Assembly (NCBI GenBank): GCA_012735535.1
Contig: JAAYHC010000063.1
Coordinates: 19,027-83,026, forward strand
Reading direction: 5' to 3'
Source: Bacillota bacterium
Lineage (GTDB): Bacteria > Bacillota > UBA5301
DNA: 64,000 bases
Shown: positions 6,207 to 39,148 of the stretch, piece by piece
Layout: the number at the start of each line of letters is the position of its first letter
Numbering within the stretch: the first letter of the stretch is position 1
Notes under the pieces: generated by a model
Told to the model about the DNA's origin: nothing
The model's database searches: none
What the model saw: the letters and a program-made list of their open reading frames with translations, nothing else
Made by a program: the position numbers and the translations under genes

Positions 6207-6224
6207 CAACAGCACCTCCAACAA

Positions 6225-8098: not shown

Positions 8099-8913
8099 TT
8101 TTCGCCTCCCTTTCCTAGCGCCCGTGAAACCTGAGTCGCCTGCCGCACCGCATTGAAAATCAGGCCACGGAAACCGCCCTGCTCCAGCGCGGCCAAGCCG
8201 GCGATGGTTGTCCCGCCGGGAGTGGTAACCGCATCTTTGAGGATAGCCGGATGGGCCTCACTTTCCTTAACTAACTTGGCGGCACCCAAAACGGTTTCTA
8301 CCGCCAACTGACGCGCTACCGGACGGGCCAACCCCTCCCGCACGCCGGCATCAATCAAGGCCTCGATGAAGAGATAAACATAAGCCGGACCGCTGCCGCT
8401 TAGCCCGGTAACCGCGTCTAGCTCTGCTTCACTAACGGTTACCACTTCGCCGAGGGAGCTCAACACTGCTTTAGCCCGATCCAGATGGCTCGGCTGGACG
8501 TTACTCCCCCCGGCCAGCGCGGTTATGCCCGCTCCGATCGTTGCCGGGGTGTTAGGCATGGCTCGAACTACCAGAGCTCCATCCGGCAAGAAAGCTTCAA
8601 GACTGGCAATCCGCACGCCCGCAGCGATCGAAACCAATAAACAGTGCCGTGGCCAAGCTTTAGCCAAATCAGTCAAAACTGCCGAAACTTGCCAAGGTTT
8701 GACCGCTAAAACTACTAAATCGGCACCGGCAACGGCCTCCACTGTCGAAGACGAGATGCCGACACCAAACTGCCGTTGAACCTCGGCGAGTTTTTTGTGG
8801 TCAATATCGACAGCGACAATCGCGGCCGCACGGCTTGGGTCCTGCGCGAGCAAACCCTTGATGACCGCACAACCCATAACCCCTGTCCCAATAATGACTA
8901 CCCGCTCTCCCAA
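8095..8913 (-). CDS. proC: Pyrroline-5-carboxylate reductase
   Basis: N-terminal Rossmann fold IIGTGVMG. ProC-like C-terminal dimerisation domain with the TTPGGTT motif. Confidence 0.85.
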   Translation of the reverse strand: MGERVVIIGTGVMGCAVIKGLLAQDPSRAAAIVAVDIDHKKLAEVQRQFGVGISSSTVEAVAGADLVVLAVKPWQVSAVLTDLAKAWPRHCLLVSIAAGVRIASLEAFLPDGALVVRAMPNTPATIGAGITALAGGSNVQPSHLDRAKAVLSSLGEVVTVSEAELDAVTGLSGSGPAYVYLFIEALIDAGVREGLARPVARQLAVETVLGAAKLVKESEAHPAILKDAVTTPGGTTIAGLAALEQGGFRGLIFNAVRQATQVSRALGKGGEK

Positions 8914-8929
8914 CAGATTCCCTCCCTAT

Positions 8930-9400
8930 TTACTTATTTAGCCAGTCCAACTCGGGATCGAGACTCAATAAGTCCAAATCTGCGGAGATGTTAACCCCTT
9001 TAGGAGTCAAAAGATAAATGGCCTCCTCAACCTTGGCAATCCGGCCATCAATCGCAAAAATAACTCCGCACAAGAAATCTAAGATCCGTTGGGCCATGGG
9101 GGGAGCCGACCGTCTCAGGTTGATTACTACGGGTACATCAGACTGCAAATTATTGACAACTTCCGGCACTTCATCAAAATCACAAAGCTCACAAAGGGCT
9201 ATCTTGGTCAGTCCGCCCTCCTGATCTGATTTACCAGGAAACGAGATCAAGCGCCCCCGCGATACTTTGGGTTCAGAAGTTGCCCGCAGGACCGGTCTGG
9301 CCGGTCGCTCACTGTAACGATCATAAGTGGTATAATCGTCCTCAGGCTCCCCATCTTCTATACCCATCAAATTCAGCAGCTTGTCCAATAGATTCGCCAT
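8930..9400 (-). CDS. sepF: Cell division protein SepF
   Basis: About 150 aa with conserved C-terminal SepF core (VVINLRRS..., IDGRIAKV). Synteny with yggS and yggT. Confidence 0.8.
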   Translation of the reverse strand: MANLLDKLLNLMGIEDGEPEDDYTTYDRYSERPARPVLRATSEPKVSRGRLISFPGKSDQEGGLTKIALCELCDFDEVPEVVNNLQSDVPVVINLRRSAPPMAQRILDFLCGVIFAIDGRIAKVEEAIYLLTPKGVNISADLDLLSLDPELDWLNK

Positions 9401-9412
9401 CGCATTTTCCTC

Positions 9413-10123
9413 CTATTGCCGACGCGGCCCGAATATACCTTCTCCGATGCGCACCAGGGTTGAACCCTCCGCAATCGCCGCAGTAAAATCACCGGTCATG
9501 CCCATAGACAAGATCTCCATAGCTACATTCGGCAGCTTGAGTTCAGCAATTTTCACTGCCAGTTCGCGCATTCTGGCAAAAAACGGCCGGGCCTGATCCG
9601 GCTGAGCAACTAGCGGAGCAACGGTCATCAGCCCTTTAATTGCTAAATGGGCATAACCGGCCAATTGCTCAACCAAATCCACCGCTTGATCCGGATACAC
9701 CCCGCCCTTGGAGGGTTCTTCGCCAATGTTAACCTCAACCAACACCGCAATCTGACGGCCTTGTTCGGCCCCGATGCGATTCAGCGTCTCTGCCAAGGCA
9801 GGGCGGTCCAGCGAGTGAATCAAAGCGGCAAACTCCGCTGCTTTCCTGGCCTTATTTCGCTGCAGTTGACCGAGAAAATGCCAATTGACATCAGCCGGCA
9901 CCGCGGATACTTTCGTCAACGCCTCCTGTACCCGGTTCTCGCCAAAATCACGCAAGCCGAACTCATAGGCCGCGAGGATCGCCTCAATCTCCTGGTTTTT
10001 GCTCACCGCAACCAGGGTGATCTCCGACGGGTCACGACCGGCCCGCACCGCAGCGGTCGCGATCTGGTCCTGAATGCGTTTAATTGCTTCGCCAATTTGC
10101 TGCGCCCGATCCGATTTAACCAT
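9413..10123 (-). CDS. YggS-family pyridoxal-phosphate homeostasis protein (YlmE)
   Basis: TIM-barrel PLP protein with the VAVSK lysine motif, about 230 aa. Confidence 0.85.
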   Translation of the reverse strand: MVKSDRAQQIGEAIKRIQDQIATAAVRAGRDPSEITLVAVSKNQEIEAILAAYEFGLRDFGENRVQEALTKVSAVPADVNWHFLGQLQRNKARKAAEFAALIHSLDRPALAETLNRIGAEQGRQIAVLVEVNIGEEPSKGGVYPDQAVDLVEQLAGYAHLAIKGLMTVAPLVAQPDQARPFFARMRELAVKIAELKLPNVAMEILSMGMTGDFTAAIAEGSTLVRIGEGIFGPRRQ

Positions 10124-25571: not shown

Positions 25572-26927
25572 ATGCTTCAGGCCTCACCCCTGATTTCGAT
25601 ATTAACCGTATTACTATATCTCGCCGGTGTCTTTGGCTTTGGGGGCGCGACCGGCAAGGATAGTGCGACCGTGCCGGGGTTGGCTGACTCGGGGTCAAGT
25701 CAACACAACGCGGCCTCTTTTGTTTTGGCTTCCGGCAGTTCCGTCAAGATTGGCGATACCGTCGAGGCTTCGGGTCGGGTAGTCAATATCCGCAGCGGCC
25801 CGGGCACCTCCTATCCGATTTTGGGCACGGTCTCTACCGGTCAAACCGCTACGGTCGAAGGTGGTAGTAACGGTTGGCTTAAGCTACGCTTTCAGGATAA
25901 TTTAACCGGCTGGGTCGCGGACTGGCTCGTCCGTCCGGGTAAAGGCAACCCCGCCGCGGCACATGTGCCGGCCGGCCTGCAAAGCATCGGTTATTTCGTT
26001 ACTACGAGTGCCAACGATACTACCTCGCTTGATTCTATGGCCCAGGCCGGCAAGAGCCTGACCGGAATTGCCCCCTTCTCCTTTACGGTGGACGGGCGGG
26101 GGTACATCTCCGGCAAAAACAATTCCGAAGCGGTGAGTAGGGCCAAAAAAGCCGGCCAAGTTGCTCTGGCCTTGGTTCATAATACCAGCGGCGATTGGTT
26201 TAGCTCTACTGTTGCTCATAACTTGCTCTCCCAACAAGTTAACAGAACCAGAGCCATTAATGAGATTCTCTATATCATCAAAACGTATGGATATGATGGG
26301 GTTAACATCGACTTTGAATCGGTGAAACCGAGTGACCGGGAAAACTTCAACACCTTTATTCGCGAACTCTCCTGGGCGCTAAGGCCCAAAGGATACTTGG
26401 TTACCGTTTCGGTCCCGGCCAAAACCAAGGATGATAAAAGTCATAATTGGTCTGGCGCCTATGATTACAAAGTCATCGGAGAGTACGCCGATTGGGTCAT
26501 GTTAATGGCCTATGATCAGCATTACAAAACAGGCAGTCCCGGACCGGTCGCCGCGATTAACTGGGTCGAGCAGGTCGTTAAATACGCAGTCTCCACCATT
26601 CCTAAACACAAAATCATCCTCGGCGTCCCGGCTTACGGCTATGACTGGCCGACCAACGGGAGTGCGGCGAGGTCGGTTAGTTATGCCCAGGCGATGAATA
26701 TAGCGAAAACCCACGGAATTACGCCCAAATGGCATGCGACCTATAAAGTTCCATACTTCTCTTACGTCAGCAATGGGGTAGTTAGACAGGTTTGGTTTGA
26801 ATCGAGCTGGAGCTTGGAGCACAAACTGAAGCTGGTTAAAGAGTATGGGCTGAAAGGAATCGCCATCTGGCGGCTAGGCCTGGAAGATCCCCGCTCCTGG
26901 GATGTGATCAAAGAGTACTTTTACTAG
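25572..26927 (+). CDS. SH3b-domain glycoside hydrolase family 18 (spore peptidoglycan hydrolase, YaaH/YdhD-like)
   Basis: Signal/TM N-terminus and SH3_3-like domain (VNIRSGPGTSYPILGTV). GH18 barrel with the DGVNIDFE catalytic motif. The only plus-strand gene in the window, with a GAAGGAG RBS. Confidence 0.8.
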   Translation: MLQASPLISILTVLLYLAGVFGFGGATGKDSATVPGLADSGSSQHNAASFVLASGSSVKIGDTVEASGRVVNIRSGPGTSYPILGTVSTGQTATVEGGSNGWLKLRFQDNLTGWVADWLVRPGKGNPAAAHVPAGLQSIGYFVTTSANDTTSLDSMAQAGKSLTGIAPFSFTVDGRGYISGKNNSEAVSRAKKAGQVALALVHNTSGDWFSSTVAHNLLSQQVNRTRAINEILYIIKTYGYDGVNIDFESVKPSDRENFNTFIRELSWALRPKGYLVTVSVPAKTKDDKSHNWSGAYDYKVIGEYADWVMLMAYDQHYKTGSPGPVAAINWVEQVVKYAVSTIPKHKIILGVPAYGYDWPTNGSAARSVSYAQAMNIAKTHGITPKWHATYKVPYFSYVSNGVVRQVWFESSWSLEHKLKLVKEYGLKGIAIWRLGLEDPRSWDVIKEYFY

Positions 26928-26932
26928 TATTC

Positions 26933-27904
26933 TCAAAGTAGCTCCGAGACCGGAACCAACTCGTAACCCTGTTGCCTCAATATTTCGATTATTCGCGGCA
27001 GGGCGGCCAGCGTAGGCTCGGTGGGGTGCATTAAAACCAGTGCCCCATTCTGAGCCTTTTTGACAACTCGCTCGATAATCACTTCCGGAGCAGGCCGTTG
27101 CCAATCAATCGTATCCACGGTCCACAACACCGTCCGATAACCTAGGCCGGCCGCTACCCGGACCACCTGTTGATTGTATTCGCCGGCCGGCGGCGCAAAA
27201 AGTCTCACCGGAGTAGCCCCGGCCTTTTCGAGCGCCGTCTGCGCCTTACTGATCAAATCAGTCAGTTCGGCCTCGCTCATTTGGTTGGGATGTCCATGAT
27301 AATATCCGTGGTTGGCGATCTCGTGACCGGCTTTGACGATCTGCCCGAACAAGCTGGGAAAACGCTCAACCCATTCCCCGATGAAGAAGAAAGTCGCTTT
27401 AACCTGATACTTGGCGAGCACTTCAAGCATGCCTGGGATGAACTCATTTCCCCAAGCTACGTTAATCATCAGCGCCATCGCTTGCCGGCTGATATCACCG
27501 CGAAATACCGGTTGAAAATAAACATGGGTAATCGGCGGATGCACCGGTTCAAGCACAGCCTGAACTTTTTGACCGCGCCGAGCCGAAAAAACCGCCTCAA
27601 GCGTACGTTCCCGGTTCAGCACTTGACCGACCGTCTCCGGAACCACCCTGCGCTCAACCGCGTTATACTGGGCGTTTACAGCTGGTTTCTCTAATTGCTG
27701 CGCTATTTTTTCGAGGAGCAGTTCCACCTCATCCCGCAACAAGCCTCCAACTGCATAGCCTTCAAGCATCACACCGGGCGGGACCCCATAGAGTGAGCGT
27801 CTAATCTTATCAAGCAAATTAGGCGCAACTAAACCAATCAAGATGCTGGCAATGAGGATCAGCAACAGAAATAGTCGCTCCTTTGAACGGACTCTGCTCA
27901 TCAC
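26933..27904 (-). CDS. Polysaccharide deacetylase family sporulation protein (YlxY-like, NodB domain)
   Basis: N-terminal TM plus an about 130-aa domain, then NodB homology (HEIANHGYYH, LWTVDTIDW). Confidence 0.75.
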   Translation of the reverse strand: MMSRVRSKERLFLLLILIASILIGLVAPNLLDKIRRSLYGVPPGVMLEGYAVGGLLRDEVELLLEKIAQQLEKPAVNAQYNAVERRVVPETVGQVLNRERTLEAVFSARRGQKVQAVLEPVHPPITHVYFQPVFRGDISRQAMALMINVAWGNEFIPGMLEVLAKYQVKATFFFIGEWVERFPSLFGQIVKAGHEIANHGYYHGHPNQMSEAELTDLISKAQTALEKAGATPVRLFAPPAGEYNQQVVRVAAGLGYRTVLWTVDTIDWQRPAPEVIIERVVKKAQNGALVLMHPTEPTLAALPRIIEILRQQGYELVPVSELL

Positions 27905-28698
27905 GCTTCCTCCTGAGGGGTGGTTAAGGGTAGAGGGCGCTGCACTCCGTTAGCGTCGATATAGTAATTCTCGTGATAAATTAGTTCAGAGATCGGTACA
28001 ACGCGATAGCCTTGGGCTTTAAACCATGGGATGAGGACTTTTAGCGCCGCCAGAGTATTCCGGCCATTATTGTGAAAAAGAATGATCGAGCCTGGGCGCA
28101 CCTGAGTTTGGATCCGGTGAACAATATGTTCAACGGTCGGATTGCGCCAATCCAGTGAATCAATCGACCACTGAATGGTCTGATAACCTAAACTGGCAGC
28201 GGCTTCAATTACTTTATTGCTGTATTCGCCAAACGGCGGACGAAACAGGGTCGGGGTAAACCCGGTGATATCGACGATCAGCGCATGGTTACGCTCGAGT
28301 TCATGCCTGATCTCCTGCGGCGACAGCGAGTTAAGATGGGGATGGGAGTAGGTATGATTACCGATTTCATGGCCGTGCGCGACAATTTTACGCGCATGTT
28401 CGGGGTATTTTTCCAGCCAGTAGCCTCCCAAGAAAAAGGTGGTTTTGATCCCTTCCCGCTCAAAAAGCTCCAAAAATCCATCGGTAAACTCGACCCCCCA
28501 AACCGCATCCAGGGAAATCGAGATAACTCGGTCCGAGCGACTGACCTCGTAGATCGGCAAGAGCCGCTTTTCCGTTAACCGGGTGATGACCTCGACAGTC
28601 CCTTGCCAGGCCAAGCCTTGCACGATCATCAGGGCCACTAGTAAGGCCAGCCCGTATAAAACGAGTTTCCAACGCTGACCATGCAAATAAAAGACCAT
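27901..28698 (-). CDS. Polysaccharide deacetylase (PdaA/PdaB-like delta-lactam-associated de-N-acetylase)
   Basis: Signal anchor plus NodB domain (HEIGNHTYSH, QWSIDSLDW). About 265 aa, like B. subtilis PdaA. Confidence 0.75.
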   Translation of the reverse strand: MVFYLHGQRWKLVLYGLALLVALMIVQGLAWQGTVEVITRLTEKRLLPIYEVSRSDRVISISLDAVWGVEFTDGFLELFEREGIKTTFFLGGYWLEKYPEHARKIVAHGHEIGNHTYSHPHLNSLSPQEIRHELERNHALIVDITGFTPTLFRPPFGEYSNKVIEAAASLGYQTIQWSIDSLDWRNPTVEHIVHRIQTQVRPGSIILFHNNGRNTLAALKVLIPWFKAQGYRVVPISELIYHENYYIDANGVQRPLPLTTPQEEA

Positions 28699-28769
28699 GA
28701 AAAAACCTCCTGTGCATCGTCGCAGTATGTTTATGCACCAGGAGGCTCAAAAATTATCGGAGATCTTGG

Positions 28770-29570
28770 TCAAATTGCAAAGTTGTGATCCCCAATTACC
28801 GCAGTGGTGGTCCGTGTTTGCCACCAAGCCAAAGCCTTGGACTTGCGCGGATTATAAAAGAAGAGCGCCCCACGGGATGGATCATGTCCGGCAAGGGCCA
28901 TATCCACCGCTCGCCTGGCTTCTTCTCCGGGTGTCAGCAGGATCATACCGTTGTCAACGCTTAAAAACTGACCAGGCTCCATAATTACTTCTTTGACGGT
29001 ATTGGGAAAACTAGGGTGTTTGACACGGTTAAGCACAACCGCTGCTACTGCGACCTGGCCTTCGAATGGTTCACCACGCGACTCCGCATAAACCAGCCTC
29101 GTTAACAGGTCATATTCCTCGGCAGTCAGGCGAAACGTGCTCTGCGGCCGTTCATTGCCGGTCTTCGGCGCTTCCAGCTTAGGAGCCTCTACCTTGGGAG
29201 GCTCCACTCTAATCGTCTCTGTCTTAGGTGTCTCGAGAGTGGGCCGATACTCAGTGGAGAGTTGAGGAATCGCAGCCACGATTGAAGCCGTTAACACCGG
29301 CAACTCGACCCCGGAACGTACCTGCCCCGTAGCCTGTTCATTGTTGCGCGGCAGTTTGAGCAGATCGCCGATCCTAATCTCAGGTCCGCTTAACCCGTTG
29401 ATAGCCATTAGCTCGTCAACACTGACCCCACGGGACTTTGCCAAGCTATAAAGCGTATCGCCTTTTTGTACGACGTGGATATCATACTCGGCACCGAAGC
29501 TTGTCCCGCTGAGTAAGGCAATAACTAGCCCCAGGGTAACAAAAAATAATCTAAGATTAGGCCGCTTCAT
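28770..29570 (-). CDS. LysM-domain SleB/CwlJ-family cell-wall hydrolase
   Basis: Signal peptide and LysM (DTLYSLAKSRGVSVDELMAINGL). C-terminal Hydrolase_2 domain (YAESRGEPFEGQVAVAAVVLNRV). Confidence 0.75.
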   Translation of the reverse strand: MKRPNLRLFFVTLGLVIALLSGTSFGAEYDIHVVQKGDTLYSLAKSRGVSVDELMAINGLSGPEIRIGDLLKLPRNNEQATGQVRSGVELPVLTASIVAAIPQLSTEYRPTLETPKTETIRVEPPKVEAPKLEAPKTGNERPQSTFRLTAEEYDLLTRLVYAESRGEPFEGQVAVAAVVLNRVKHPSFPNTVKEVIMEPGQFLSVDNGMILLTPGEEARRAVDMALAGHDPSRGALFFYNPRKSKALAWWQTRTTTAVIGDHNFAI

Positions 29571-29631
29571 CTCCTCACCCCAACAATTTTCTCAACATCC
29601 AATTATTACGATATTCGACGAAATACCGGCT

Positions 29632-30510
29632 TTACCTGCTGTTTACAGTATTACCCTGCTTCTGGCGCGTGCGCCACAGCTGCCGCAGGGTCTCAAGATT
29701 GGTAGCGAAGTTCCCCAGCTCATCCTCTGGTGTCTCTAAAATGACCGGAAGGCCGTGTAGTTCCGGCTGCTCCATCATGGCAGCAAAACCGGCCAGGCCA
29801 AGCCGGCCATGACCTATATGGGAATGCCGATCCAAACGGTCACCTAATTCCCCGGTGGCATCATTGGCATGAATTAATTTCAGCGCTGCCAAACCGCATC
29901 GTTCTTTGATCGTGTCCAACACCGCGCGCCAACCCTCAGGAGTACGCAAATCATAACCGGCAGCAAAACTATGACAAGTGTCTAAGCAGAGGCCGACCCA
30001 TTCTTCGGCAGCCTCGATTCTATCCCGGATCCGGCAGAGGTTGTCCCACGAACCGCCGATCTCCGTTCCCCCGCCGGCCTCAATTTCCAGCAAGGCCATA
30101 CTCTTAACCTCACTCTCCTGGCGGAAGCGGTTGAAGGCCTCAGCCACATAATCAAAACCTGTTTCCAGGCCGGCTCCACCATGACTACCCGGATGAATGA
30201 TCATATATTCCGCCCCGATCTGACCCGCCCGCTCCAAGTCTTCGCGGAAACGAGAATAAGACTTCTCACGGATCTCAGGATTGGGCGACGCCAAATTGAC
30301 CAAATAGGTAGAATGAACCGCGACCACCGAAATACCGGAATCAGCGCGCGCCTCCTTAAAACGGGCAACGTCCTCGGCCCGGAGCGGACTCACCCGCCAT
30401 CCCCGGGGATTACTCGCGAAAATTTGAATAGCTTCACAACCGAGCTCCACTCCGCGTTCAATAGCTTTATAAAGTCCTCCCGCAATCGAGACGTGACAAC
30501 CGAACCGCAT
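29632..30510 (-). CDS. nfo: Endonuclease IV (deoxyribonuclease IV)
   Basis: Xylose-isomerase-like TIM barrel with conserved Nfo metal ligands (HxxYLxN, HAND, CLDTCH). 292 aa. Confidence 0.85.
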   Translation of the reverse strand: MRFGCHVSIAGGLYKAIERGVELGCEAIQIFASNPRGWRVSPLRAEDVARFKEARADSGISVVAVHSTYLVNLASPNPEIREKSYSRFREDLERAGQIGAEYMIIHPGSHGGAGLETGFDYVAEAFNRFRQESEVKSMALLEIEAGGGTEIGGSWDNLCRIRDRIEAAEEWVGLCLDTCHSFAAGYDLRTPEGWRAVLDTIKERCGLAALKLIHANDATGELGDRLDRHSHIGHGRLGLAGFAAMMEQPELHGLPVILETPEDELGNFATNLETLRQLWRTRQKQGNTVNSR

Positions 30511-30522
30511 CTTGTTTTCCCC

Positions 30523-31368
30523 TCATTCTCGTCTGCCTAGCTTGTCGAACCAGGAGAGCAAGCTTGATTTTTGAATCTGAGCATTTAAAGAAAGCTTCTC
30601 TGTCAAGAGGTTTATCCCTCCCACAATGAGCAGCGCCCCTAAAGTTGTTGGCCAACTGCCGAGACCGGCCAGGCCTAATCCGGCCACTGCGCCCAGCAGA
30701 TTCGCTCCGGTATCTCCCAACATCAAATTTCCTTTAAGATCCGAAGCTCCAACTATGGCTACACCGCCCAACACCGGAAAGAGCAAGATGGCCAAATCGA
30801 CCCGGAAAATGGCAGCAGCGGCTACCGGCATTGTTAACAAGCCAAAAGCTTTAACCGCCCGACCTGGTCGTACATCGAAGAGGTTTATGAGATTCGCACA
30901 CAGAGCAATTAGCACTGCATTGAGTAGGGCCACGCCGAGATTATTCTCGCCAGATAAGCTGGCCAGCAAAGCCAGGATCCCTCCGCCGATGGCTTTAGCG
31001 CCCCCGGTGGTCAATCGCCCCTGCAGTAAAGTCGAAAAATGATAGCGAAATCCGCCATGTTCAGCTACGCCGCCGCGATCATCTAGGAATCCTAGCAGTG
31101 CAAACCCCCAGACGAGAATTATGGCCGGCTGAATCAAGCGAGACGCAGCCGGCTCGGCCTGCGGTGCCCCAATTATCAGATAAGCCAGCCAAGCCAGTGA
31201 GAGGCCCGGTAAGAGCATCAGTCCCCCGGAGGAAGGTATTTTCCGGCCCAAGTAGTTTTCAGCCAACCAACCGGCGCGGCTGGATAGCCCGTACAGCAAA
31301 GGCATGGCCAACCAAGTCACAACCGCCGAAGTGAGGGTCAAAACCACAATAGCATCCAGAGCAGTCAT
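30523..31368 (-). CDS. Truncated/divergent glycosyltransferase family 4 (MraY/WecA-like polyprenyl-phosphate sugar-phosphotransferase fold)
   Basis: Multi-TM protein with NLINLFD-like motif resembling the MraY/WecA NxxNxxDGxDGL region and an FLDD motif. Only 281 aa, shorter than MraY or WecA. Confidence 0.5.
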   Translation of the reverse strand: MTALDAIVVLTLTSAVVTWLAMPLLYGLSSRAGWLAENYLGRKIPSSGGLMLLPGLSLAWLAYLIIGAPQAEPAASRLIQPAIILVWGFALLGFLDDRGGVAEHGGFRYHFSTLLQGRLTTGGAKAIGGGILALLASLSGENNLGVALLNAVLIALCANLINLFDVRPGRAVKAFGLLTMPVAAAAIFRVDLAILLFPVLGGVAIVGASDLKGNLMLGDTGANLLGAVAGLGLAGLGSWPTTLGALLIVGGINLLTEKLSLNAQIQKSSLLSWFDKLGRRE

Positions 31369-32042
31369 CTACGCCCTTCTTTCCACAGTTTGACCATTGT
31401 TCGGAAGATATCTTGAAATTGGCGATAACGATGCAGATAACCGGCGAGATCCTTGCCGGTGTAGGCATGCTCCATCGGCAAGGGGACTTGCGCAATCGCT
31501 AATCTGGCCCGCACCGCCAGGACCGTTAAAGCGAATTCCAAGCCAAACCCCTCTCCGAGCGGTGTCAATTTCGGCAGATCGGCTTTAAAGAAGGCCCGCT
31601 GTCCGGAGAGAACAGCGGGAAAACTGCGGCCGGTCAGCCAAAACATACCGAGGCGGGCCAACCTTTTGACCAGCCCAACTCCTCCACTGCCTTTAGGTGA
31701 GGTCAGTACGGCAACCGCCATCCGCGCTTCCCCGGTGAGCAGCGGTTCAATCAAGCGCGGATAGTACTTGGCGGTTTGGCCCAAGTCAGCATCGAGCAGA
31801 ACAATGATTTCACCCCGAGCCTGTCGGAGAGCCGTTGTTACCGCGGCCGCTTTTCCCTGGTTGGTGGGAAGCTTGATCAGTTCGACCGGAAACTGGGCTG
31901 CTATTTCCGGGGTTAGATCGGTTGAACCGTCATCAACGACGATCAGCTGTTGGTGTCGCCGACGCTCGAGAATTGCGCGAATAGTGCCGGCAATCCGCTC
32001 TTCCTCATTAAATGCCGGGATGATAACTGTGATTGTGCTCAT
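31365..32042 (-). CDS. Glycosyltransferase family 2 (DPM1/GtrB-like polyprenyl-phosphate glycosyltransferase)
   Basis: N-terminal VIIPAFNEE, DDGSTD and DADL motifs of GT2 GT-A fold. 225 aa. Confidence 0.75.
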   Translation of the reverse strand: MSTITVIIPAFNEEERIAGTIRAILERRRHQQLIVVDDGSTDLTPEIAAQFPVELIKLPTNQGKAAAVTTALRQARGEIIVLLDADLGQTAKYYPRLIEPLLTGEARMAVAVLTSPKGSGGVGLVKRLARLGMFWLTGRSFPAVLSGQRAFFKADLPKLTPLGEGFGLEFALTVLAVRARLAIAQVPLPMEHAYTGKDLAGYLHRYRQFQDIFRTMVKLWKEGRR

Positions 32043-32724
32043 CAGCGATCACCCCGCTTAATTCCAAAATAAACCTGGCCTGCTCCTCTAAGGTTGAAAG
32101 CGTACTTGGAGCGGCATAGACTCTTAAACCGGCCTGAACCAGCTGTTCTTGAAACCAGTGACTGTGCTCGGTTTCGCCGATCAGAACAATGTTTTGTGCC
32201 CCGATCGGATGGCTGGCCGACAACTGGATGAGCCCGCGTTGTTCAAGCCTGGATAAGCTTGGCCCCCGCAAACCCACGGCAAGTACTCCGGCCAAGACCT
32301 TAAAATCATCGGCTGAAACCTGGCTCCACTGGGCCGGATCAGTTTCCAGTTGAGCAACCACTCTTGCGCCGCTGTCCTCAAAAAGCTTCTTCAAACTATT
32401 GACATAACTATTGGTCACCGCACCTTGCTTAATAAATGCGAAGGTTTGGTTCTGGAGTTTTCCGGCAATTGTTTGCGGTACCAACCATTCGATGAACTTG
32501 CGCTCTTGGCCCAAATCAATACGTAACAAATTGATTTGCTGGGTCAGTTTCTGGTTCTCCGTGCGCAAAGCGACAAAATCCCGTTCCAGGCGGTTAACTA
32601 GTTCCGTTTGGCTCTTGATCAGCGTTTCATCGGAAAACAAAGCACCACCGACTAAAACTCCTAATCCAAAGGCGAGAAAAACGGCAACTAGAGTAAAAAG
32701 GTGATAGCGATAATCAATCAGCAT
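32008..32724 (-). CDS. MctB/SteB-like membrane protein (DUF3186-like; N-terminal TM + coiled coil)
   Basis: N-terminal TM then coiled coil (LVNRLERDFVALRTENQKLTQQINLLR). Immediately downstream of the SteA-like gene, as steA-steB/mctB are in Actinobacteria. Confidence 0.5.
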   Translation of the reverse strand: MLIDYRYHLFTLVAVFLAFGLGVLVGGALFSDETLIKSQTELVNRLERDFVALRTENQKLTQQINLLRIDLGQERKFIEWLVPQTIAGKLQNQTFAFIKQGAVTNSYVNSLKKLFEDSGARVVAQLETDPAQWSQVSADDFKVLAGVLAVGLRGPSLSRLEQRGLIQLSASHPIGAQNIVLIGETEHSHWFQEQLVQAGLRVYAAPSTLSTLEEQARFILELSGVIADEHNHSYHPGI

Positions 32725-32736
32725 ACAACCACCACT

Positions 32737-33861
32737 TTAGAAGCCCAAGGACGCTTGCAGATACAGCAGTAACAGCCTACTCCAACTACGCAGGGGCTCG
32801 GCCAAGGACAACAAGACTAGGAGCGGAATGGCGGCGGCAACCACCATCGGAATCAGATACATCGTTCGCACTTTGCCGGAATACAGAGCATCAACTCCTT
32901 TAGCATCGACCAGTATTTCGCCCACTTTCAGTCTTACCAAAAACGTACTGCCCATTCCCGGTCGTCCTTTATCCAAGAAATCAATCATATTGGAGTGAGT
33001 ACCCACGGCTACAATGAGTTTGGCCCCTTTATCGTAGGCCAGCAGTAACGCCAAGTCCTCGCTAGTTCCCGGAATATGCCAAACATGTCCGGTCAAACCC
33101 AGGGCACGCAGACGTTCAACACCCGGCGCCCGTCCATCGACATACCCATGGACGATCAACTCAGCCCCGCTTTGCAGAGTCTCGTCACTAACGCTATCCA
33201 TGTCCCCCACAATGATATCCGGTTGCCATCCGAGATCACGCAGGGCATCCGCCCCACCGTCAACACCAATCAGAACCGGTTTAACCTCGTCAATGTAACT
33301 CGCCAAAGCAGCCAGGTCCTCTTGATAGCGTTTGCCCCGCACGACGACCAGGACATGTTTCCCCTGTAAAGAATGCTTGATCTTCGGTGCCGGATAGGCG
33401 CCCGTAATCAGCCCGAGCTCTTTTTGAGCATATTCGAGGGTGTTGGCGACGAACTTGGCCAACTCCAAGTTAAGGTTCTCGCGGGCAATCGCCAGATCGG
33501 TCTCAAGCTGTTCTTTGGTATATGGCTGCAGATAAATCTGGCCGTGTTGCCAAGTTAGTTTGCCCTGCAAATCCAGTTCGACTCGGACGCCGTCGAGCTC
33601 GCGTAAATCGGTTTTTTCTAACGCCTGAAACAAATAAACCCCTCGTTCAAGTAGGAAGAGGGGACCACTATTAGGATACCGGCCGGAAACAAAAGGCTTT
33701 ACATTGATGACCGCTGCCACGCGGGCGTCGTACAGCGAAGCGGCAGCCACCTCGTCAAGGTCTTGATGAGATATAATTACAATCTCGCCCGGCTGAACCC
33801 TGGTAGCAAGTTCTTTGGTTCGTTCTCCCACCCTCGCCACTGTTTTGATCGGGCGGGACAT
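32737..33861 (-). CDS. SteA-like putative cytokinetic ring protein (thiamin-pyrophosphokinase-like catalytic domain)
   Basis: TPK-like catalytic domain motif IIVGDMDSV. About 374 aa with a C-terminal TM. Paired with the SteB/MctB-like gene. Confidence 0.6.
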   Translation of the reverse strand: MSRPIKTVARVGERTKELATRVQPGEIVIISHQDLDEVAAASLYDARVAAVINVKPFVSGRYPNSGPLFLLERGVYLFQALEKTDLRELDGVRVELDLQGKLTWQHGQIYLQPYTKEQLETDLAIARENLNLELAKFVANTLEYAQKELGLITGAYPAPKIKHSLQGKHVLVVVRGKRYQEDLAALASYIDEVKPVLIGVDGGADALRDLGWQPDIIVGDMDSVSDETLQSGAELIVHGYVDGRAPGVERLRALGLTGHVWHIPGTSEDLALLLAYDKGAKLIVAVGTHSNMIDFLDKGRPGMGSTFLVRLKVGEILVDAKGVDALYSGKVRTMYLIPMVVAAAIPLLVLLSLAEPLRSWSRLLLLYLQASLGF

Positions 33862-33881: not shown

Positions 33882-34655
33882 TTATGCCGTAGAATTACCA
33901 AATTTGATCAAATCCGCCACCCTGGCGATAAATGCTGAATTAGTGGGTTTACCTCTGTTGCTGCTAATCGTAGCCCCAAAAAGTGAATACAGATACTCGA
34001 TGTCACCATTGGACCACGCATGTTCGATCGCGACGCGGAGCGCTCTTTCGACAACTGTCGGACTCGTCCCATATTTTTCGGCGATATACGGATAAAGGCG
34101 CGTGGTTACACCATTTAAGTAGGCTCGGTTCTCCAGAACGACTAGCACCGCATCCCGCAGATAGTTATACCCTTTAAAATGGACCGGAATTCCTATCGCC
34201 GCCAAAAGTTCAACCACCTTCTTTTCCCAGAGCGGATCCGCGTGAGTCACGGGTGCAAGGCGCGATGTCTCCTGGCCCACCTGACGGATGCGGCGCAAGA
34301 GCAACTCGGTTCTAAATGGCTTAATAATGTAATAGCTGGCACCTAAATCAAGGATCTTTTGGGTCATCTCCGGCTCCCCGACAGCGGTCAAGGCAATGAC
34401 CTTCGGCCGACCGACCTCTAACTCTGCCAGCTCTTCTAAGACGGCAATGCCATCTAGTTTGGGCATAATCATATCGAGCAGAACCACATCTGGTTTAATG
34501 TCGATAATTAACCGCAATGCCTCCTCACCGTCATAGGCTGCGCCAACAAACTCCAGATCGGGCGCCGCATTGATGGCGGAGGCCAGCAAGTCAACCAAAT
34601 CACGTTCATCATCGGCGATCAAGACACGGATTGGCCTCATGGAAAAAACCCCCAT
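33882..34655 (-). CDS. spo0A: Sporulation master regulator Spo0A
   Basis: Receiver domain (DDERD...D...K) plus Spo0A-specific C-terminal DNA-binding domain (YIAEKYGTSPTVVERALRVAIEHAWSNGD, SNRGKPTNSAFIA). Confidence 0.95.
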   Translation of the reverse strand: MGVFSMRPIRVLIADDERDLVDLLASAINAAPDLEFVGAAYDGEEALRLIIDIKPDVVLLDMIMPKLDGIAVLEELAELEVGRPKVIALTAVGEPEMTQKILDLGASYYIIKPFRTELLLRRIRQVGQETSRLAPVTHADPLWEKKVVELLAAIGIPVHFKGYNYLRDAVLVVLENRAYLNGVTTRLYPYIAEKYGTSPTVVERALRVAIEHAWSNGDIEYLYSLFGATISSNRGKPTNSAFIARVADLIKFGNSTA

Positions 34656-34694: not shown

Positions 34695-35993
34695 TTACGC
34701 AGCCGGAGCAGCAGCCGGATCTTGCGCAAAAAGGCCGGCTTCATGGACCATCCATTCGGCAAAAACCCCATACCCACGCGTCGGATCATTCACAAAGACA
34801 TGCGTGATGACACCGACCAGTTTCTGATTCTGAATAATCGGGCTCCCGCTCATGCCCTGCACGATTCCGCCGGTGATCTCCAACAGACGCGGATCGGTGA
34901 TTTCAATAACCATCCCTTTGATCCCCGGTTTGGTTTGCTTATTTACCTTGACGATCTTGACGTCAAACTGCTCAACTTTATCACCATCGATCACTGTTCG
35001 GATGTAGGCGGGTCCGAGCTCAACTTCATGAGCCATCGCCACCGGCAAAGTGGGCTGGTTGCTCGCGACAAGGTTGGTCAGCTCTCCAAAGATTCCAATC
35101 GAACTGTTCTTGGTGATAATGCCGAGGCTCGGAGCCCGTTCCTGAAATAAGCCGATTTTCTCGCCGGGCTGTCCCTTACTACCCCGTCTGATCCCTGCAA
35201 TGAGAGCAGGAACAATCCGACCGTTGTTAATGATCGCCTGCTCTCCGGTACGAGAATCGGTGACCATGTGGCCTAGCGCTGCATAGCGGCCGCTCGCAGG
35301 ATGATAAAAACTGAGGGTACCGACTCCGGCAGCGGTGTCTTCCAGGTAAACCCCCAGACGAAGATGGACCTGCCCACTTTCATCACGGACCCGGGCCGGA
35401 TAAACGCGCATTAAATGTGGCTCCCCTTTGCGCAGCACTTTGACTGTTACCGGGCCGGATCCCGCACTACGCAGCGCTCGTTCAACATCTAACGGCCCAG
35501 TAATCACAACCTCATTGATCTGCACCAACAAATCCCCTGGTTTCAGTCCGGCATCGCCCGCCGGACTGACAACCGTTCCGTCAATAGTTTGCAAGCGGGC
35601 GAGTTCAGCTACGATCATCCCGTGCTCGGCCAACATCACTCCGATCGATTCCCCACCCGGTACGACCTCGACCTTCGGCACAACGGAAACAACACGTTCC
35701 CGCAAGGGAATTACACCAAATAAGCTCAGATCGAGGATGCTGTCCCCGGTCTTTAACGGCCTGAATACTACTTCCGGGCCAGGCTCGATTTGCAGAATGC
35801 TGTTTACGGCTTGCCCGGAGATCTTCACCGGCCACAGCCATCTAAAAACTTGTTCATCTCCTTCAGTTAGGCGTAAATGTTCGGGAAGGCCTAATGAAGT
35901 TTCAATCTTGTTCAGACCATACCATCCGATCAGGCCAAGCATTAGCAGAGTCCAGAATACGTATTTGCCTACCGTACGAAGTCGTAGCCGCAA
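34695..35993 (-). CDS. spoIVB: SpoIVB signalling serine peptidase (PDZ + S55)
   Basis: N-terminal TM, PDZ domain, S55 peptidase core (GTLSFYHPASGRYAALGH). Adjacent to spo0A as in Bacillus. Confidence 0.9.
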   Translation of the reverse strand: MRLRLRTVGKYVFWTLLMLGLIGWYGLNKIETSLGLPEHLRLTEGDEQVFRWLWPVKISGQAVNSILQIEPGPEVVFRPLKTGDSILDLSLFGVIPLRERVVSVVPKVEVVPGGESIGVMLAEHGMIVAELARLQTIDGTVVSPAGDAGLKPGDLLVQINEVVITGPLDVERALRSAGSGPVTVKVLRKGEPHLMRVYPARVRDESGQVHLRLGVYLEDTAAGVGTLSFYHPASGRYAALGHMVTDSRTGEQAIINNGRIVPALIAGIRRGSKGQPGEKIGLFQERAPSLGIITKNSSIGIFGELTNLVASNQPTLPVAMAHEVELGPAYIRTVIDGDKVEQFDVKIVKVNKQTKPGIKGMVIEITDPRLLEITGGIVQGMSGSPIIQNQKLVGVITHVFVNDPTRGYGVFAEWMVHEAGLFAQDPAAAPAA

Positions 35994-36049: not shown

Positions 36050-37780
36050 TTATGCCTGGCAACTCTCGCTGCCTTTTTTATATCCTGCCGCTTGGGTCAA
36101 TAAGTCCCGGGCGGCTTGCACAGTCGCTTCGCTCACCGACACGCCGCCAAGCAAGCGGGCTAGTTCGTTGACCCGACCCTGCTCGTCGAGCAGCCGAACT
36201 TTAACTGTCGGATATTGATCGGCTCCGACCGCCGCTTTTTCCAAGAGAATGTGCTGATCACCCATTGCGGCAATTTGTGGCAGATGGGTAACACAAATAA
36301 CCTGGTAATTGCGGGATAGCTCAAATAGTTTTTCGGCGATAGCCTGAGCAGCCCGACCGCTGGTGCCGGTATCGATCTCATCAAAGATCAAGATGGGCAC
36401 ACCTTCGCTCGCGGCAAGCGCGCCTTTGAGAGCCAGCAACAAGCGGGAAAGTTCGCCTCCGGAGGCAACCCGGTGCAACAACTTGGGCGGCTCCGGCGGA
36501 TTAGCACTAAAACGGAATTCCACCGTATCCAACCCATCCTCGGTCGGGAGGTTATCGCTATTGGGGCTGACCACTACCTCAAAGCGAGCTTCAGATAAAC
36601 GCAGATCCTGCAAACCGTCGCGCACAGCCTGCTCTAAGCGGCGGGCTGCCTCTTCTCTGTTCGCCCGTAAAAGCAGGGCCTGCTGAATGAGCAGTTCTTG
36701 GAGACTTGCCAGTTCTCGCTCAAGTTCGCTTTTGGAAACTTCACTCCGCTCCAAAGCCGCCAACTCTGCTTGCGCCTTGGTCCAATACGCGAGAACATCG
36801 GCCAACTCCGGCCCATATTTGCGCTTAAGCGAGTCGAGCAAAGCCAACCGCGTTTCAAGCCTGTCCAGCTCCGCCGGATCAAAATTGAGTTCCGCCAGGT
36901 AAGTGCGTAAACGATCGGATAAATCTTCTAAAACGGCCAATGTCCCGTCGAGAAGATCAGTCGCATCCGACCAGGAATGGTCGATCCGGGCAATCTTCGC
37001 CACGGACTCAGCTGCTTGCCGGAGTGAATCGAGCGCACCGGGAACCTCCGACAAGCCCTGCTTGAGCAAGCCGTATGCCCTCGCGGCTTCCTCAGCCAGC
37101 TTTTCCGCATTGCGTAGAATATTGCGGCGCTCACCAAGCTCCACATCCTCGTCCGCCCGCAGCTGGGCCGCGGAAATCTCGTTCACTTGGTAAGCAAGCA
37201 TATCCAGTTGCCTGGCCCGCTCTTGTTCCGAGCGAGTTAAGTCCGCCAGTTGGCGCGAAATCTCCCGATACCGGTTAAAGAAGCGTGCATATTCCGACCT
37301 CAATCGGAAGTTTTCTGCACCGGCATAGGCATCGAGGATGCGCAAATGCTGTTTTGGACTGAGCAGCGAATAGTGATCGCCTTGGCTCTGAATATCCATG
37401 AGGCTGCTGCCGATTTCGGTCAAGTCGCTCAAAGTGACCAACTGACCATTGATTCGGCAGCGATTAGGTCCATTGATCTGCAGACGCCTGGAGAGGATTA
37501 ACTCAGATTCATCGGCCGCCGACTCTAACCCTTTCTCCCTTAGCAGCTCGGCCACGCGCTGGGAACTGTTGATTTTGAAGATGCCCTCAATCACCGCTCC
37601 GGTAGTCCCGGAACGAATTTGATCCTCAAAACCCCGTCCTCCGGATAAGAGCATAATCGCTTCGAGCAAGATTGATTTGCCGGTACCGGTTTCTCCGGTA
37701 ATTACGGTCAAACCGGGATAAAACGGCAGATCAAGCTCTTCGATCAAAACGAAATTCTCGATATGCAGTTCAGATAACAT
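36050..37780 (-). CDS. recN: DNA repair protein RecN
   Basis: Walker A GETGTGKS, long coiled-coil, C-terminal signature/Walker B. 576 aa. Confidence 0.9.
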   Translation of the reverse strand: MLSELHIENFVLIEELDLPFYPGLTVITGETGTGKSILLEAIMLLSGGRGFEDQIRSGTTGAVIEGIFKINSSQRVAELLREKGLESAADESELILSRRLQINGPNRCRINGQLVTLSDLTEIGSSLMDIQSQGDHYSLLSPKQHLRILDAYAGAENFRLRSEYARFFNRYREISRQLADLTRSEQERARQLDMLAYQVNEISAAQLRADEDVELGERRNILRNAEKLAEEAARAYGLLKQGLSEVPGALDSLRQAAESVAKIARIDHSWSDATDLLDGTLAVLEDLSDRLRTYLAELNFDPAELDRLETRLALLDSLKRKYGPELADVLAYWTKAQAELAALERSEVSKSELERELASLQELLIQQALLLRANREEAARRLEQAVRDGLQDLRLSEARFEVVVSPNSDNLPTEDGLDTVEFRFSANPPEPPKLLHRVASGGELSRLLLALKGALAASEGVPILIFDEIDTGTSGRAAQAIAEKLFELSRNYQVICVTHLPQIAAMGDQHILLEKAAVGADQYPTVKVRLLDEQGRVNELARLLGGVSVSEATVQAARDLLTQAAGYKKGSESCQA

Positions 37781-37785
37781 CTCTA

Positions 37786-38274
37786 TCAGCCTCGTAACTG
37801 CCAGAGTTTCGTCTCTAATTCACTGGCGGTCCGGTCAATCGCGGCCAAATCCGTGGTCCCCGCGGCCCGCTGATCCCGCACAATGACAAGCAGACTATCA
37901 TCACCGGCGATCGTACCGCAGATCTCCGGCCAACCCAACGCATCAATGGCCGCCGCCACCGTATTGGCTGTGCCCGGCGCCGATCGGACAATGATCAAGT
38001 TTAAGCTTCGTTCGATGGAGGTGACAAATTCCTGGAAGATTCGCTCGGCTCGCAAAACGCTGCCGGAAGGTGAGTGTTCTTTGGGCAGCCCATACTTGTA
38101 TCGGCCATCTTCGGTAACCAATTTGACTAAGCCCAAATCCTTGATGTCCCGAGATACCGTTGCTTGAGTAACCTTAATGCCTTGGCGGGATAGCTCTGCG
38201 GTTAACTGCTCTTGAGTCTCGATCTCTTTGGACTCGATTAAGTCGAGAATTAACCGATGCCTTTTCGCCTTCAT
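37786..38274 (-). CDS. argR: Arginine repressor
   Basis: Winged-helix N-terminus (QATVSRDIKDLGLVK) and hexamerisation C-terminal domain. Confidence 0.9.
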   Translation of the reverse strand: MKAKRHRLILDLIESKEIETQEQLTAELSRQGIKVTQATVSRDIKDLGLVKLVTEDGRYKYGLPKEHSPSGSVLRAERIFQEFVTSIERSLNLIIVRSAPGTANTVAAAIDALGWPEICGTIAGDDSLLVIVRDQRAAGTTDLAAIDRTASELETKLWQLRG

Positions 38275-39146
38275 CGAAAATCCTCCTCACCCTGACCACC
38301 AAGCCGTGATCTAAAGACATCAAAAAAGTTGCTGTCCGGCATACGAATCAGTTTGGTACTCAGCCGGGAGCGCACTCCTTCCACAGTATCTTCGGCTAAT
38401 AACGGATACCCCACTTGCCCGTCGACCGTGAGCATAACCTCCCCGCCGGCATGGACCACCTGAATCTGAACCATCTCGCTGTCTTTTACTACTAATGAAC
38501 GGTGACGCAAAGCATGAGGACAGATCGGATTAATCGTCAGGACGCGGGCTTCGGGATGGACGACCGGACCGCCGGCAGCCAGAGAATAGGCTGTTGAACC
38601 GGTCGGAGTGGCGACAATAACGCCATCAGCCCGGTAACGGTCAGCGCGCTGGCCGGAGATAAAGATGTCTACCGTAACAATCCGTGCGAAGGTGCCTCTG
38701 GTCACCACGAGCTCATTTAAGGCCAAATAGCGGCCCAAAACCTCACCCCGCCGCTTAATGACCACATCGAGCATCGTCCGCTCGTCGATCTGGTGACGGC
38801 CGGCGAGAACAGTGGTCAAAGCCTCTTCAATCTGCTTGAGTTCGACCGCGGTTAAAAATCCGAGGTGCCCGGCGTTGACCCCGAGTAACGGCACGGATAG
38901 AGGGGCATAGTGCTTGGCTGCCGCCAACATCGTCCCATCGCCGCCGAGGACAAGGCAAAAATCAGGAGGGTTGTCCGGCGACTCTCTGGTAAGCCCCAGG
39001 CAATTAATCAGCACCTCTTGGGGTGATACGAGCTGCAAACCCAATCTCGCCGCCAGGTGCGGCAAGATCTTGGCAGTCTGCACCGCATCCTTTTTCGACT
39101 GATTAATATAAAGGGCAGCGACAGTAATGGTTTTCCCTCCTAGCAC
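38271..39146 (-). CDS. nadK: NAD+ kinase
   Basis: GGDGT motif and NAD-kinase C-terminal domain. The track ORF extends to 39296, overlapping tlyA. An in-frame GTG at 39146, two nt after the tlyA stop and preceded by GGAG, gives an NAD-kinase-sized 292 aa. Confidence 0.85.
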   Translation of the reverse strand: MLGGKTITVAALYINQSKKDAVQTAKILPHLAARLGLQLVSPQEVLINCLGLTRESPDNPPDFCLVLGGDGTMLAAAKHYAPLSVPLLGVNAGHLGFLTAVELKQIEEALTTVLAGRHQIDERTMLDVVIKRRGEVLGRYLALNELVVTRGTFARIVTVDIFISGQRADRYRADGVIVATPTGSTAYSLAAGGPVVHPEARVLTINPICPHALRHRSLVVKDSEMVQIQVVHAGGEVMLTVDGQVGYPLLAEDTVEGVRSRLSTKLIRMPDSNFFDVFRSRLGGQGEEDFR

Positions 39147-39148
39147 AC

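Follow-up and report, generated by a model that had tools for sequence, protein, structure and literature searches.

A gene cluster containing four genes (steA, steB, a GT2 glycosyltransferase gene and a gene encoding an MraY/WecA-like transferase) was identified directly downstream of spo0A in a stretch of 64,000 nucleotides from a Bacillota bacterium (contig JAAYHC010000063.1), which is referred to below as the window. The cluster is read, with rather better than even confidence, as an ancestral, vertically inherited and translationally coupled vegetative envelope module that links glycan synthesis to SteA and SteB (SteAB). In the window, steA and steB are separated by 12 nucleotides (nt), the end of steB overlaps the start of the GT2 gene by 35 nt, and the stop codon of the GT2 gene overlaps the start codon of the fourth gene in an ATGA. 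The same order, steA followed by steB, the GT2 gene and the transferase gene, was found in 43 of the 46 Bacillota loci with enough downstream sequence, distributed over many classes. The remaining three loci comprise two artefacts of open reading frame (ORF) calling and one locus without steB.

The comparative scan was based on a SteA alignment with one genome per species, and from at least 538 confirmed matches the 80 best loci were considered. These loci span many classes of the Bacillota as well as Armatimonadota and Actinomycetota, and the window proteins were searched against all of their ORFs. Among the Bacillota loci that carry the block are those of Thermoanaerobacterium and Romboutsia/Terrisporobacter. 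The four-gene block or parts of it are also present in Armatimonadota and Acidimicrobiales. The arrangement steA-steB-transferase was detected in Actinomadura, Nonomuraea, Isoptericola, Promicromonospora and Solirubrobacteraceae, and in the Solirubrobacteraceae genome it is followed by pyrG. Reciprocal look-ups starting from the transferase family reached the SteA neighborhood in Aneurinibacillus, Paenibacillus and Solirubrobacteraceae.

Several loci keep the association of SteA with the two transferases where no steB is found beside them. In Aneurinibacillus (locus L082, 6279-8831) and Paenibacillus sp. 32352 (L085, 4182-6897), a SteA-like protein is followed by the GT2 and then by the MraY/WecA-like protein, with no SteB between them. 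Both SteA-like proteins end without a C-terminal transmembrane (TM) helix, and DUF2627 and the bkd operon come next after the block in both loci; in the Paenibacillus locus, spo0A lies approximately 3.2 kb (four genes) upstream of the block. The TM helix of SteA and SteB have been lost together in these two Bacilli, which fits the TM-bundle interaction reported for SteA and SteB. Clostridia bacterium 41_269 (L004, 45-2688) contains a steA that encodes a TM helix, followed by the GT2 and transferase genes with no steB between them, and its steB may be located elsewhere or lost. A natural fusion of GT2 and transferase, the 544-amino acid (aa) protein P0160 (L083, 8001-9635), occurs without SteA or SteB nearby and supports a functional pairing of these two enzymes. 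In Bacillota, the linkage of SteA with the transferases is at least as strong as its linkage with SteB. Outside Mycobacteriales, steA almost always occurs chained to genes for a GT2 and for a polyprenyl-phosphate sugar-phosphate transferase. Mycobacteriales appear to have lost the two transferase genes, since steAB stand last in their operon in Corynebacterium glutamicum.

The gene steA encodes a full-length SteA. The protein matched the NCBIfam model NF040608 (division_SteA) with 445 bits (cutoff 150), with residues 5-369 aligned to profile positions 1-366 of 369. It also matched PF04263 (TPK_catalytic) with 37 bits, above the threshold, and PF12555 (SteA-like_C) with 30.1 bits (cutoff 26.4) at residues 321-368. 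Sequence alignments were obtained with the crystal construct of Mycobacterium tuberculosis SteA (9HMY; residues 7-327, E value 8e-59) and with C. glutamicum SteA (9HMZ; residues 20-328, E value 3e-39). As judged from these alignments, the protein appears to contain the cytoplasmic core of the solved SteAs, composed of the N-domain, the linker helix and the dimerization/ligand domain that resembles thiamine pyrophosphokinase (TPK). Its layout starts with a globular domain at the N terminus and continues with a linker helix, a TPK-like and predicted nucleotide-binding C-domain, a TM helix at approximately residues 335-357, where a C-terminal hydrophobic stretch is seen directly in the sequence, and a short C-terminal tail. 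The motifs GVDGGAD (199-205), GDMDS (219-223, within IIVGDMDSV at residues 216-224), GTSED (265-269) and VGTHS (286-290) are invariant in the SteA alignment; the conservation of GVDGGAD and GDMDS in the 80 loci (L001-L080) was computed and then dropped as circular, because the loci had been retrieved with these motifs. The window SteA keeps the canonical TPK-type GDMDS, and the SteAs of M. tuberculosis (MtSteA) and C. glutamicum (CgSteA) have GDPDQ and GNPTG, respectively, at the same position. Homologues of SteA number in the thousands, occur mainly in Bacillota genomes and metagenome-assembled genomes (MAGs), and are often named "putative cytokinetic ring protein SteA" by NCBI. Some close homologues (P0007, P0015, P0031 and P0095) are labelled as MAGs of Chitinophagales, Betaproteobacteria or Bacteroidota, and these are probably binning contaminants, given their 53-58% identity to Bacillota SteA.

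The gene steB encodes a SteB/MctB homologue in a reduced form. The protein matched PF11382 (MctB) with 93.5 bits (cutoff 25.6) over profile positions 1-136 of 306 only. Its N-terminal tail (MxIDYRYH) leads into a TM helix, which is followed by a long coiled-coil helix (33-86) and then by a reduced alpha/beta head. An AlphaFold2 (AF2) model with a predicted local distance difference test (pLDDT) score of 74 contains helices at 3-29 and 33-86. Within the TM helix, F16, G22 and G26 are invariant among 50 SteBs from three phyla. The top eight PDB matches of the model in Foldseek are all SteB/MctB of M. tuberculosis (MtSteB) or Cg1604, with E values of 1e-8 to 5e-7 and TM-scores of 0.45-0.53. A search of PDB with the single sequence retrieved nothing relevant, and a word-indexed search retrieved only five relatives, as expected of a family that diverges fast. 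A profile search with the 50-sequence SteB alignment, which includes Bacillota, matched 9M9Z (E value 2.6e-29), 9HLE and 9HMX (4e-28) and 8AU6 (Cg1604; 9e-24), and the matches of the family profile to the MctB/SteB structures and Cg1604 span the whole ectodomain. The clade of the window SteB was aligned to full-length SteBs by hhalign with 99.9% probability and an E value of 2e-34 (columns 1-206 to template columns 13-246 of 333).

The sequence of MtSteB was rebuilt from a printed alignment and mapped onto the SteB alignment to locate the gaps. Opposite residues of approximately 128-152 of MtSteB, the window SteB has a gap that lies between its Q135 and its V136, and it has the same gap relative to all full-length SteBs. 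This gap corresponds to the alpha3-alpha4 segment that docks RipA (docking loop at MtSteB 139-153) and covers E130, L141, G144-L147 and K150, which are every reported RipA contact. A conserved C-terminal region (STVDNxDT...GxYGxK), which is kept in the full-length SteBs of Bacillota and Actinomycetota, is also absent from the window SteB and its close relatives. The relatives that share 85%, 48% and 47% identity with it are 238-241 aa long; because they are of about the same length, the window SteB is a stable variant and not a pseudogene. Other short SteBs are found in Halanaerobiales, Limnochordia and some unclassified Bacillota. In this organism, the short SteB would be unable to dock a RipA-type partner in the known way, and any extracytoplasmic partner would be different or absent because the RipA-docking loop is lost. 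The reduced protein may thus not act as the mycobacterial SteB does.

The third gene encodes a soluble GT-A glycosyltransferase. The protein matched PF00535 with 100.6 bits (threshold 23.3), and the DDGS and DAD motifs seen in the sequence correspond to the N-terminal half of a GT-A fold with a DxD-type motif. No NCBIfam equivalog cutoff was reached by this protein, and its nearest solved relatives are DPMS (5MLZ; E value 2.8e-11), GpgS, ArnC and GtrB. The fourth gene product is a predicted divergent polyprenyl-phosphate sugar-1-phosphate transferase with the fold of MraY, WecA and DPAGT1, which was identified through scans of its orthologues, a profile search against PDB and its modeled fold. 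The window copy had no Pfam or NCBIfam match, not even at an E value of 1. Among its orthologues, 37 of 46 matched PF00953 (best E value 3.9e-13), and the family profile matched the MraY structures 8G01, 5JNQ and 4J72 with E values of 1e-9 to 1e-7. The AF2 model has a pLDDT of 93.8, and MraY and DPAGT1 account for all of its top 35 PDB matches (probability 1.00, TM-scores of 0.54-0.68). The protein keeps D96-D97, N159/N162/D165 and G218-D219-x-G221; D96, D97 and D219, which align with the DD and GDvGS motifs of Escherichia coli MraY, are invariant in sets of 46 and 66 sequences. The family has NxxNLxDxRPGR instead of NxxNxxDGxDGL, so that of the two Asp residues only the first is retained.

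An earlier note, made from the letters of the window, had described the first two genes as a pair resembling SteA and SteB. Both ORFs do lie on the minus strand where it had placed them, the 374-aa protein does carry IIVGDMDSV and a C-terminal TM segment, and the homology of both proteins to the SteA and SteB families was established, with the Pfam check of the note included. The pair is real, with match scores far beyond chance expectation, and its second member is the TM and coiled-coil protein that had been described, in a reduced form without the hydrolase-docking segment. The note had missed the GT2 and the MraY/WecA-like transferase, and the true unit consists of four genes.

The genes upstream of steA point to the history of the module. 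Bacillota loci have the order dxs-tlyA-nadK-argR-recN-spoIVB-spo0A-steA, and spo0A was found upstream of steA in 43 of the 47 Bacillota loci with at least 4 kb of upstream sequence. Actinomycetota loci contain spo0A in 0 of 18 cases and have recN directly upstream of steA in 17 of 18; Armatimonadota likewise have recN-steA without spo0A. In Peptostreptococcus canis, the stop codon of recN abuts the start of steA, spoIVB and spo0A are absent, and the module is kept. Peptostreptococcus is a non-spore-forming genus. In Tumebacillus, one Thermoanaerobacterium and one Peptoclostridium, the module is intact at a site away from spo0A. The junction recN-steA is ancestral and spoIVB-spo0A is a Bacillota-specific insertion between recN and steA, and the module now stands behind spo0A because of this insertion. 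Several Peptostreptococcaceae (L015, L020, L024, L025, L031 and L042; approximately 8500-9900) carry an extra gene of approximately 411 aa between spo0A and steA, the product of which resembles a CCA-adding enzyme or poly(A) polymerase. A neighbor-joining tree of SteA, which has no support values and short deep branches, unites Actinomycetota with Armatimonadota in a single clade, leaves the remainder of the tree to Bacillota, and groups the families in the expected way. The tree is consistent with vertical inheritance of SteA.

The ribosome-binding site AGGAGG lies 7 nt ahead of the steA ATG, and the stop codon of spo0A is separated from the start of steA by 20 nt. The gap between spo0A and steA is 0-28 nt in the window and in approximately seven other loci, and the whole 14-gene array of the window is similarly compact. 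The 20-nt gap is too small to hold a promoter or a terminator, and a consensus promoter and terminator scan of the window region found no promoter above shuffle expectation and no intergenic terminator. Motif scans were made on 27 loci with a spo0A-steA spacer of at least 110 nt. Spo0A boxes were found in 0 of the 27 spacers, and the sigH, sigF, sigG, sigE and sigK motifs were not enriched in them. Of the 27 spacers, 12 contained the extended -10 motif TGnTAnAAT (2.8 ± 1.6 after shuffling), which points weakly to housekeeping-type (sigma-A-like) promoters of steA. The role of the module is most likely vegetative, in the envelope or in division, and the adjacency to spo0A is historical and not evidence of a role in sporulation. 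To our knowledge, Bacillus subtilis sporulates without these genes.

The order tlyA-nadK-recN-steA-steB with argR-spoIVB-spo0A inserted, which the earlier note had proposed as an ancient synteny, holds in the window and across the loci, and an ancient, vertically inherited module agrees with the separation of phyla in the SteA tree. The link that the note had drawn to sporulation and asymmetric division found no support beyond adjacency, given the ancestral recN-steA junction, the module of P. canis and the lack of Spo0A and sporulation sigma motifs. The function of SteAB in Bacillota is unstudied, as the note had stated, but the adjacency of these genes to spo0A had already been published (PMC12977500).

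The coordinates of the four genes and of the surrounding features are listed in Table 1. Every gene in the region of approximately 26.9-42.4 kb is on the minus strand in a compact array, with the order dxs, tlyA-type methyltransferase gene, nadK, argR, recN, spoIVB, spo0A, steA, steB and then more genes. Independent gene calls on an identical public contig yield the same genes as the window. The mechanical nadK ORF of 341 aa has a TTG start and overlaps tlyA by approximately 150 nt; its true start is internal, since independent gene calling gives 291 aa.

Table 1. Coordinates of the four-gene cluster and of other features in the window
Feature	Coordinates	Strand	Product	Match or basis
942-aa ORF	3396-6224		presumably an aminoacyl-tRNA synthetase
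T-box leader	6256-6478	-		RF00230, 120.2 bits
Genes just downstream of the module	25572-30510		see text
MraY/WecA-like transferase gene	30523-31368	-	281 aa, polytopic membrane protein	orthologues, profile, fold
GT2 gene	31365-32042	-	225 aa, soluble GT-A glycosyltransferase, Dpm1/GpgS/ArnC-like	PF00535
steB, short form	32008-32724	-	238 aa	PF11382
steA	32737-33861	-	374 aa, membrane-anchored	NF040608, PF04263, PF12555
spo0A	33882-34655	-		TIGR02875, 283.7 bits; PF08769 and PF00072
spoIVB	34695-35993	-		TIGR02860, 403.8 bits; PF05580
recN	36050-37780	-		Pfam domain match in independent gene calls
argR	37786-38274	-		Pfam domain match in independent gene calls
nadK	ORF 38271-39296, true start ~39146	-	291 aa	Pfam domain match in independent gene calls
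tlyA-type methyltransferase gene	39149-39955	-		Pfam domain match in independent gene calls
dxs	39948-41861	-		Pfam domain match in independent gene calls
178-aa membrane ORF	41858-42394		probably OapA
OLE RNA	42399-43028	-	full length	RF01071, 488.6 bits

A full-length Ornate Large Extremophilic (OLE) RNA is located directly upstream of a 178-aa membrane ORF and dxs and heads the array that contains spo0A, steA and steB. The membrane ORF is probably the OLE-associated protein OapA. A T-box leader is located upstream of the 942-aa ORF. The genes just downstream of the module encode an endonuclease IV-like protein (AP_endonuc_2), a cortex-lytic enzyme with LysM and Hydrolase_2 domains (SleB-like), two polysaccharide deacetylases and, on the opposite strand, a protein with SH3_3 and GH18 domains; these genes form a spore-cortex or wall-modifying cluster. 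The gene nfo is also present 3' of the module in the loci L006, L007 and L033, and deacetylase genes are present 3' of it in the Limnochordia loci L008, L013 and L026. In the 20 kb around the module, no gene for an NlpC/P60 or coiled-coil hydrolase and no RipA-like gene was found, and the four-gene block itself showed no gene for a flippase, ligase or polymerase.

Lim et al. (2019, PMC6705760) described SteA and SteB as cytokinetic-ring proteins that C. glutamicum needs for cell separation. Structures of both proteins have been reported by Carloni et al. (mBio 2026, PMC12977500; bioRxiv 2025.06.28.662095, June 2025), together with the docking of the RipA coiled coil by SteB and a TM complex of SteA and SteB homologues. 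SteA of C. glutamicum is stabilized by guanosine diphosphate (GDP) or uridine diphosphate (UDP) and not by adenosine diphosphate (ADP) or nucleoside triphosphates (NTPs), and carbohydrate binding has been predicted for its pocket (PMC12977500). Binding of GDP and UDP, dimerization and localization to the division ring are known for the SteAs of C. glutamicum and M. tuberculosis only (PMC12977500, PMC6705760). Carloni et al. also state, in one sentence that proposes a role in sporulation, that steAB are located immediately downstream of spo0A in Clostridia (PMC12977500). The window has exactly this arrangement, and the placement of steAB after spo0A is therefore already published and not new. 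That paper was the only one with both SteA and spo0A found in the literature search, and it makes no mention of glycosyltransferases; no paper tying SteA or SteB to glycosyltransferase neighbors was found in the search, and queries with guessed locus tags of C. difficile and C. acetobutylicum retrieved nothing relevant. The GT2 and MraY/WecA-like genes, the SteB-less Bacilli and the short SteBs are absent from the account of Carloni et al. (PMC12977500), and what is new beyond it is the four-gene association, the SteB-independent linkage of SteA with the transferases and the minimal SteB.

Compared with the SteA-SteB pair of Mycobacteriales (Rv1697-Rv1698/MctB and Cg1603-Cg1604), the window SteA is a full-length orthologue that shares the order of domains and the TM helix at the C terminus, and the window SteB agrees with its counterparts in the N-terminal tail, the TM helix, the coiled coil and the fold of the alpha/beta head. 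In both cases, steA and steB are adjacent and downstream of tlyA-nadK-recN. The window differs in that an insertion of spoIVB-spo0A (and argR) lies upstream, that two genes for glycosyltransferases are joined to the operon, that SteB, which has neither the STVDN motif nor the alpha3-alpha4 segment for RipA docking, is shorter than MtSteB by approximately 75 residues, and that no RipA-like gene accompanies the module. SteAB also resemble FtsEX-RipC and FtsEX-CwlO, an analogy drawn in PMC12977500, as a transmembrane device that binds nucleotides with its cytoplasmic part and positions a hydrolase with its extracytoplasmic part. However, the folds of SteAB are unrelated to those of FtsEX, no ATPase is present, and recruitment of a hydrolase is doubtful for the short SteB.

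Pairs of enzymes for linkage-unit synthesis consist of a WecA/TagO-type N-acetylglucosamine-1-phosphate transferase and a second glycosyltransferase such as WbbL or TagA. The window transferase with its MraY/DPAGT1 fold likewise stands beside a soluble glycosyltransferase, as the initiation of a lipid-linked wall glycan needs. Unlike the members of such pairs, it is short (approximately 280 aa), has DxRPGR in place of DGxDGL and falls below Pfam detection.

In the proposed mechanism, SteA would be a membrane-tethered dimer with a TPK-like pocket that binds a UDP- or GDP-type nucleotide, and its TM helix would mediate the pairing with SteB, a TM and coiled-coil protein; both steps are modeled on what has been shown for the homologues of mycobacteria and corynebacteria. 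The gene linkage suggests that the MraY/WecA-like enzyme and the GT2 might build a glycan linked to polyprenyl-(pyro)phosphate from nucleotide sugars. SteA might then read or control this glycan pathway, for example via released uridine monophosphate (UMP), UDP, GDP or the nucleotide-sugar pool, and might relay the state of the pathway to the outside through SteB. A further-reaching proposal can be put forward only tentatively, namely that the ancestral and main partner of SteA is the lipid-linked glycan pathway of the adjacent transferase and GT2 rather than a hydrolase. SteA, with or without SteB, would then be a Terrabacteria-wide checkpoint that reads the synthesis of wall-glycopolymer precursors and couples this synthesis to septal wall processing, and the SteAB-RipA system of mycobacteria would be a derived remnant without the two transferases. 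SteA, with its intact GDMDS, might under this proposal even catalyze a step in the synthesis of wall-glycopolymer precursors, and its ligand would be a product or substrate of its neighbors (UMP, UDP, GDP or a nucleotide sugar).

Several points weigh against the envelope module. The coupling of SteA to the GT2 and the transferase is drawn from gene order alone, and SteAB of Mycobacteriales work without the two transferase genes, so that the linkage is not obligatory. The 20-nt gap and the lack of a promoter or terminator signal between spo0A and steA indicate that steA is probably co-transcribed with spo0A in this genome, in which case its level would follow spo0A transcription. The promoter evidence is weak, as the shuffles were mononucleotide shuffles and several closely related Peptostreptococcaceae are among the loci. 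The 80 loci were retrieved with the SteA motifs PVL[IV]GVDGG and D[ILV]I[VI]GDMD, which biases them toward query-like SteAs, and many of them are MAGs with uncertain labels. The SteB model is of moderate confidence only, being built from five sequences, and literature searches found no experiment on any SteA or SteB of the Bacillota.

An unlikely alternative, given the gene order, is that SteAB act here as a septal complex that solely positions and activates a coiled-coil peptidoglycan hydrolase for the separation of daughter cells, with the GT2 and the transferase as unrelated neighbors. This mechanism is established in Mycobacteriales (PMC6705760, PMC12977500), the homology of SteA is strong over its whole length, the TM helix and coiled coil of SteB are conserved, and most SteBs of Bacillota are full length (approximately 290-300 aa) and keep the C-terminal motif. 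It fits poorly with a window SteB that lacks the equivalent of MtSteB 128-152, with all of its RipA contacts, and the STVDN region, and with the lack of an NlpC/P60 or coiled-coil hydrolase gene in the surrounding 20 kb. The order of the four genes is moreover too widely conserved for coincidence, and SteA stays with the GT2 and the transferase in some Bacilli and in one Clostridia MAG that have no adjacent SteB. A module dedicated to sporulation, co-regulated with spo0A and acting in asymmetric division, engulfment or cortex formation, is improbable. The position of spo0A directly upstream in 43 of 47 Bacillota loci, the co-transcription implied by the short gaps in the window and approximately seven loci, and the SleB-like, polysaccharide deacetylase and GH18 genes just downstream in the window would favor it. 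These are outweighed by the ancestral recN-steA junction, into which spoIVB-spo0A was inserted, and by the persistence of the module in the non-sporulating P. canis, in Armatimonadota and in Actinomycetota. The module is also intact in Tumebacillus, Thermoanaerobacterium, Peptoclostridium and Aneurinibacillus, where it has moved from spo0A, and the spacers yielded no Spo0A box, no enrichment of sporulation sigma motifs and an enrichment of the sigma-A-like extended -10 motif.

Taken literally, the database names would make SteB a copper transporter and SteA a thiamine pyrophosphokinase, and this is very improbable. The Pfam family of SteB is named MctB, NCBI calls a homologue with 48% identity "copper transporter", and SteA does match PF04263. 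Nevertheless, a role of MctB as a copper channel is disfavored by the structural work, and this assignment of SteB was rejected. The TPK assignment of SteA was rejected as well, because TIGR01378 scored 41.9 bits against a cutoff of 76.4 and matched residues 174-230 alone. No thiamine-binding domain and no PF04265 match were found in SteA by the Pfam and NCBIfam scans.

The envelope module that links glycan synthesis to SteAB bears on a recently characterized M. tuberculosis regulator of drug tolerance and cell separation. The stabilization of the C. glutamicum protein by UDP or GDP is the only lead on the cytoplasmic signal of SteA. The linkage of SteA with the transferases, which is kept even where SteB is lost, provides a concrete and testable hypothesis on what SteA senses, and genetically tractable clostridia offer a ground for such tests. 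The comparative data also temper the published suggestion of a role of SteAB in sporulation.

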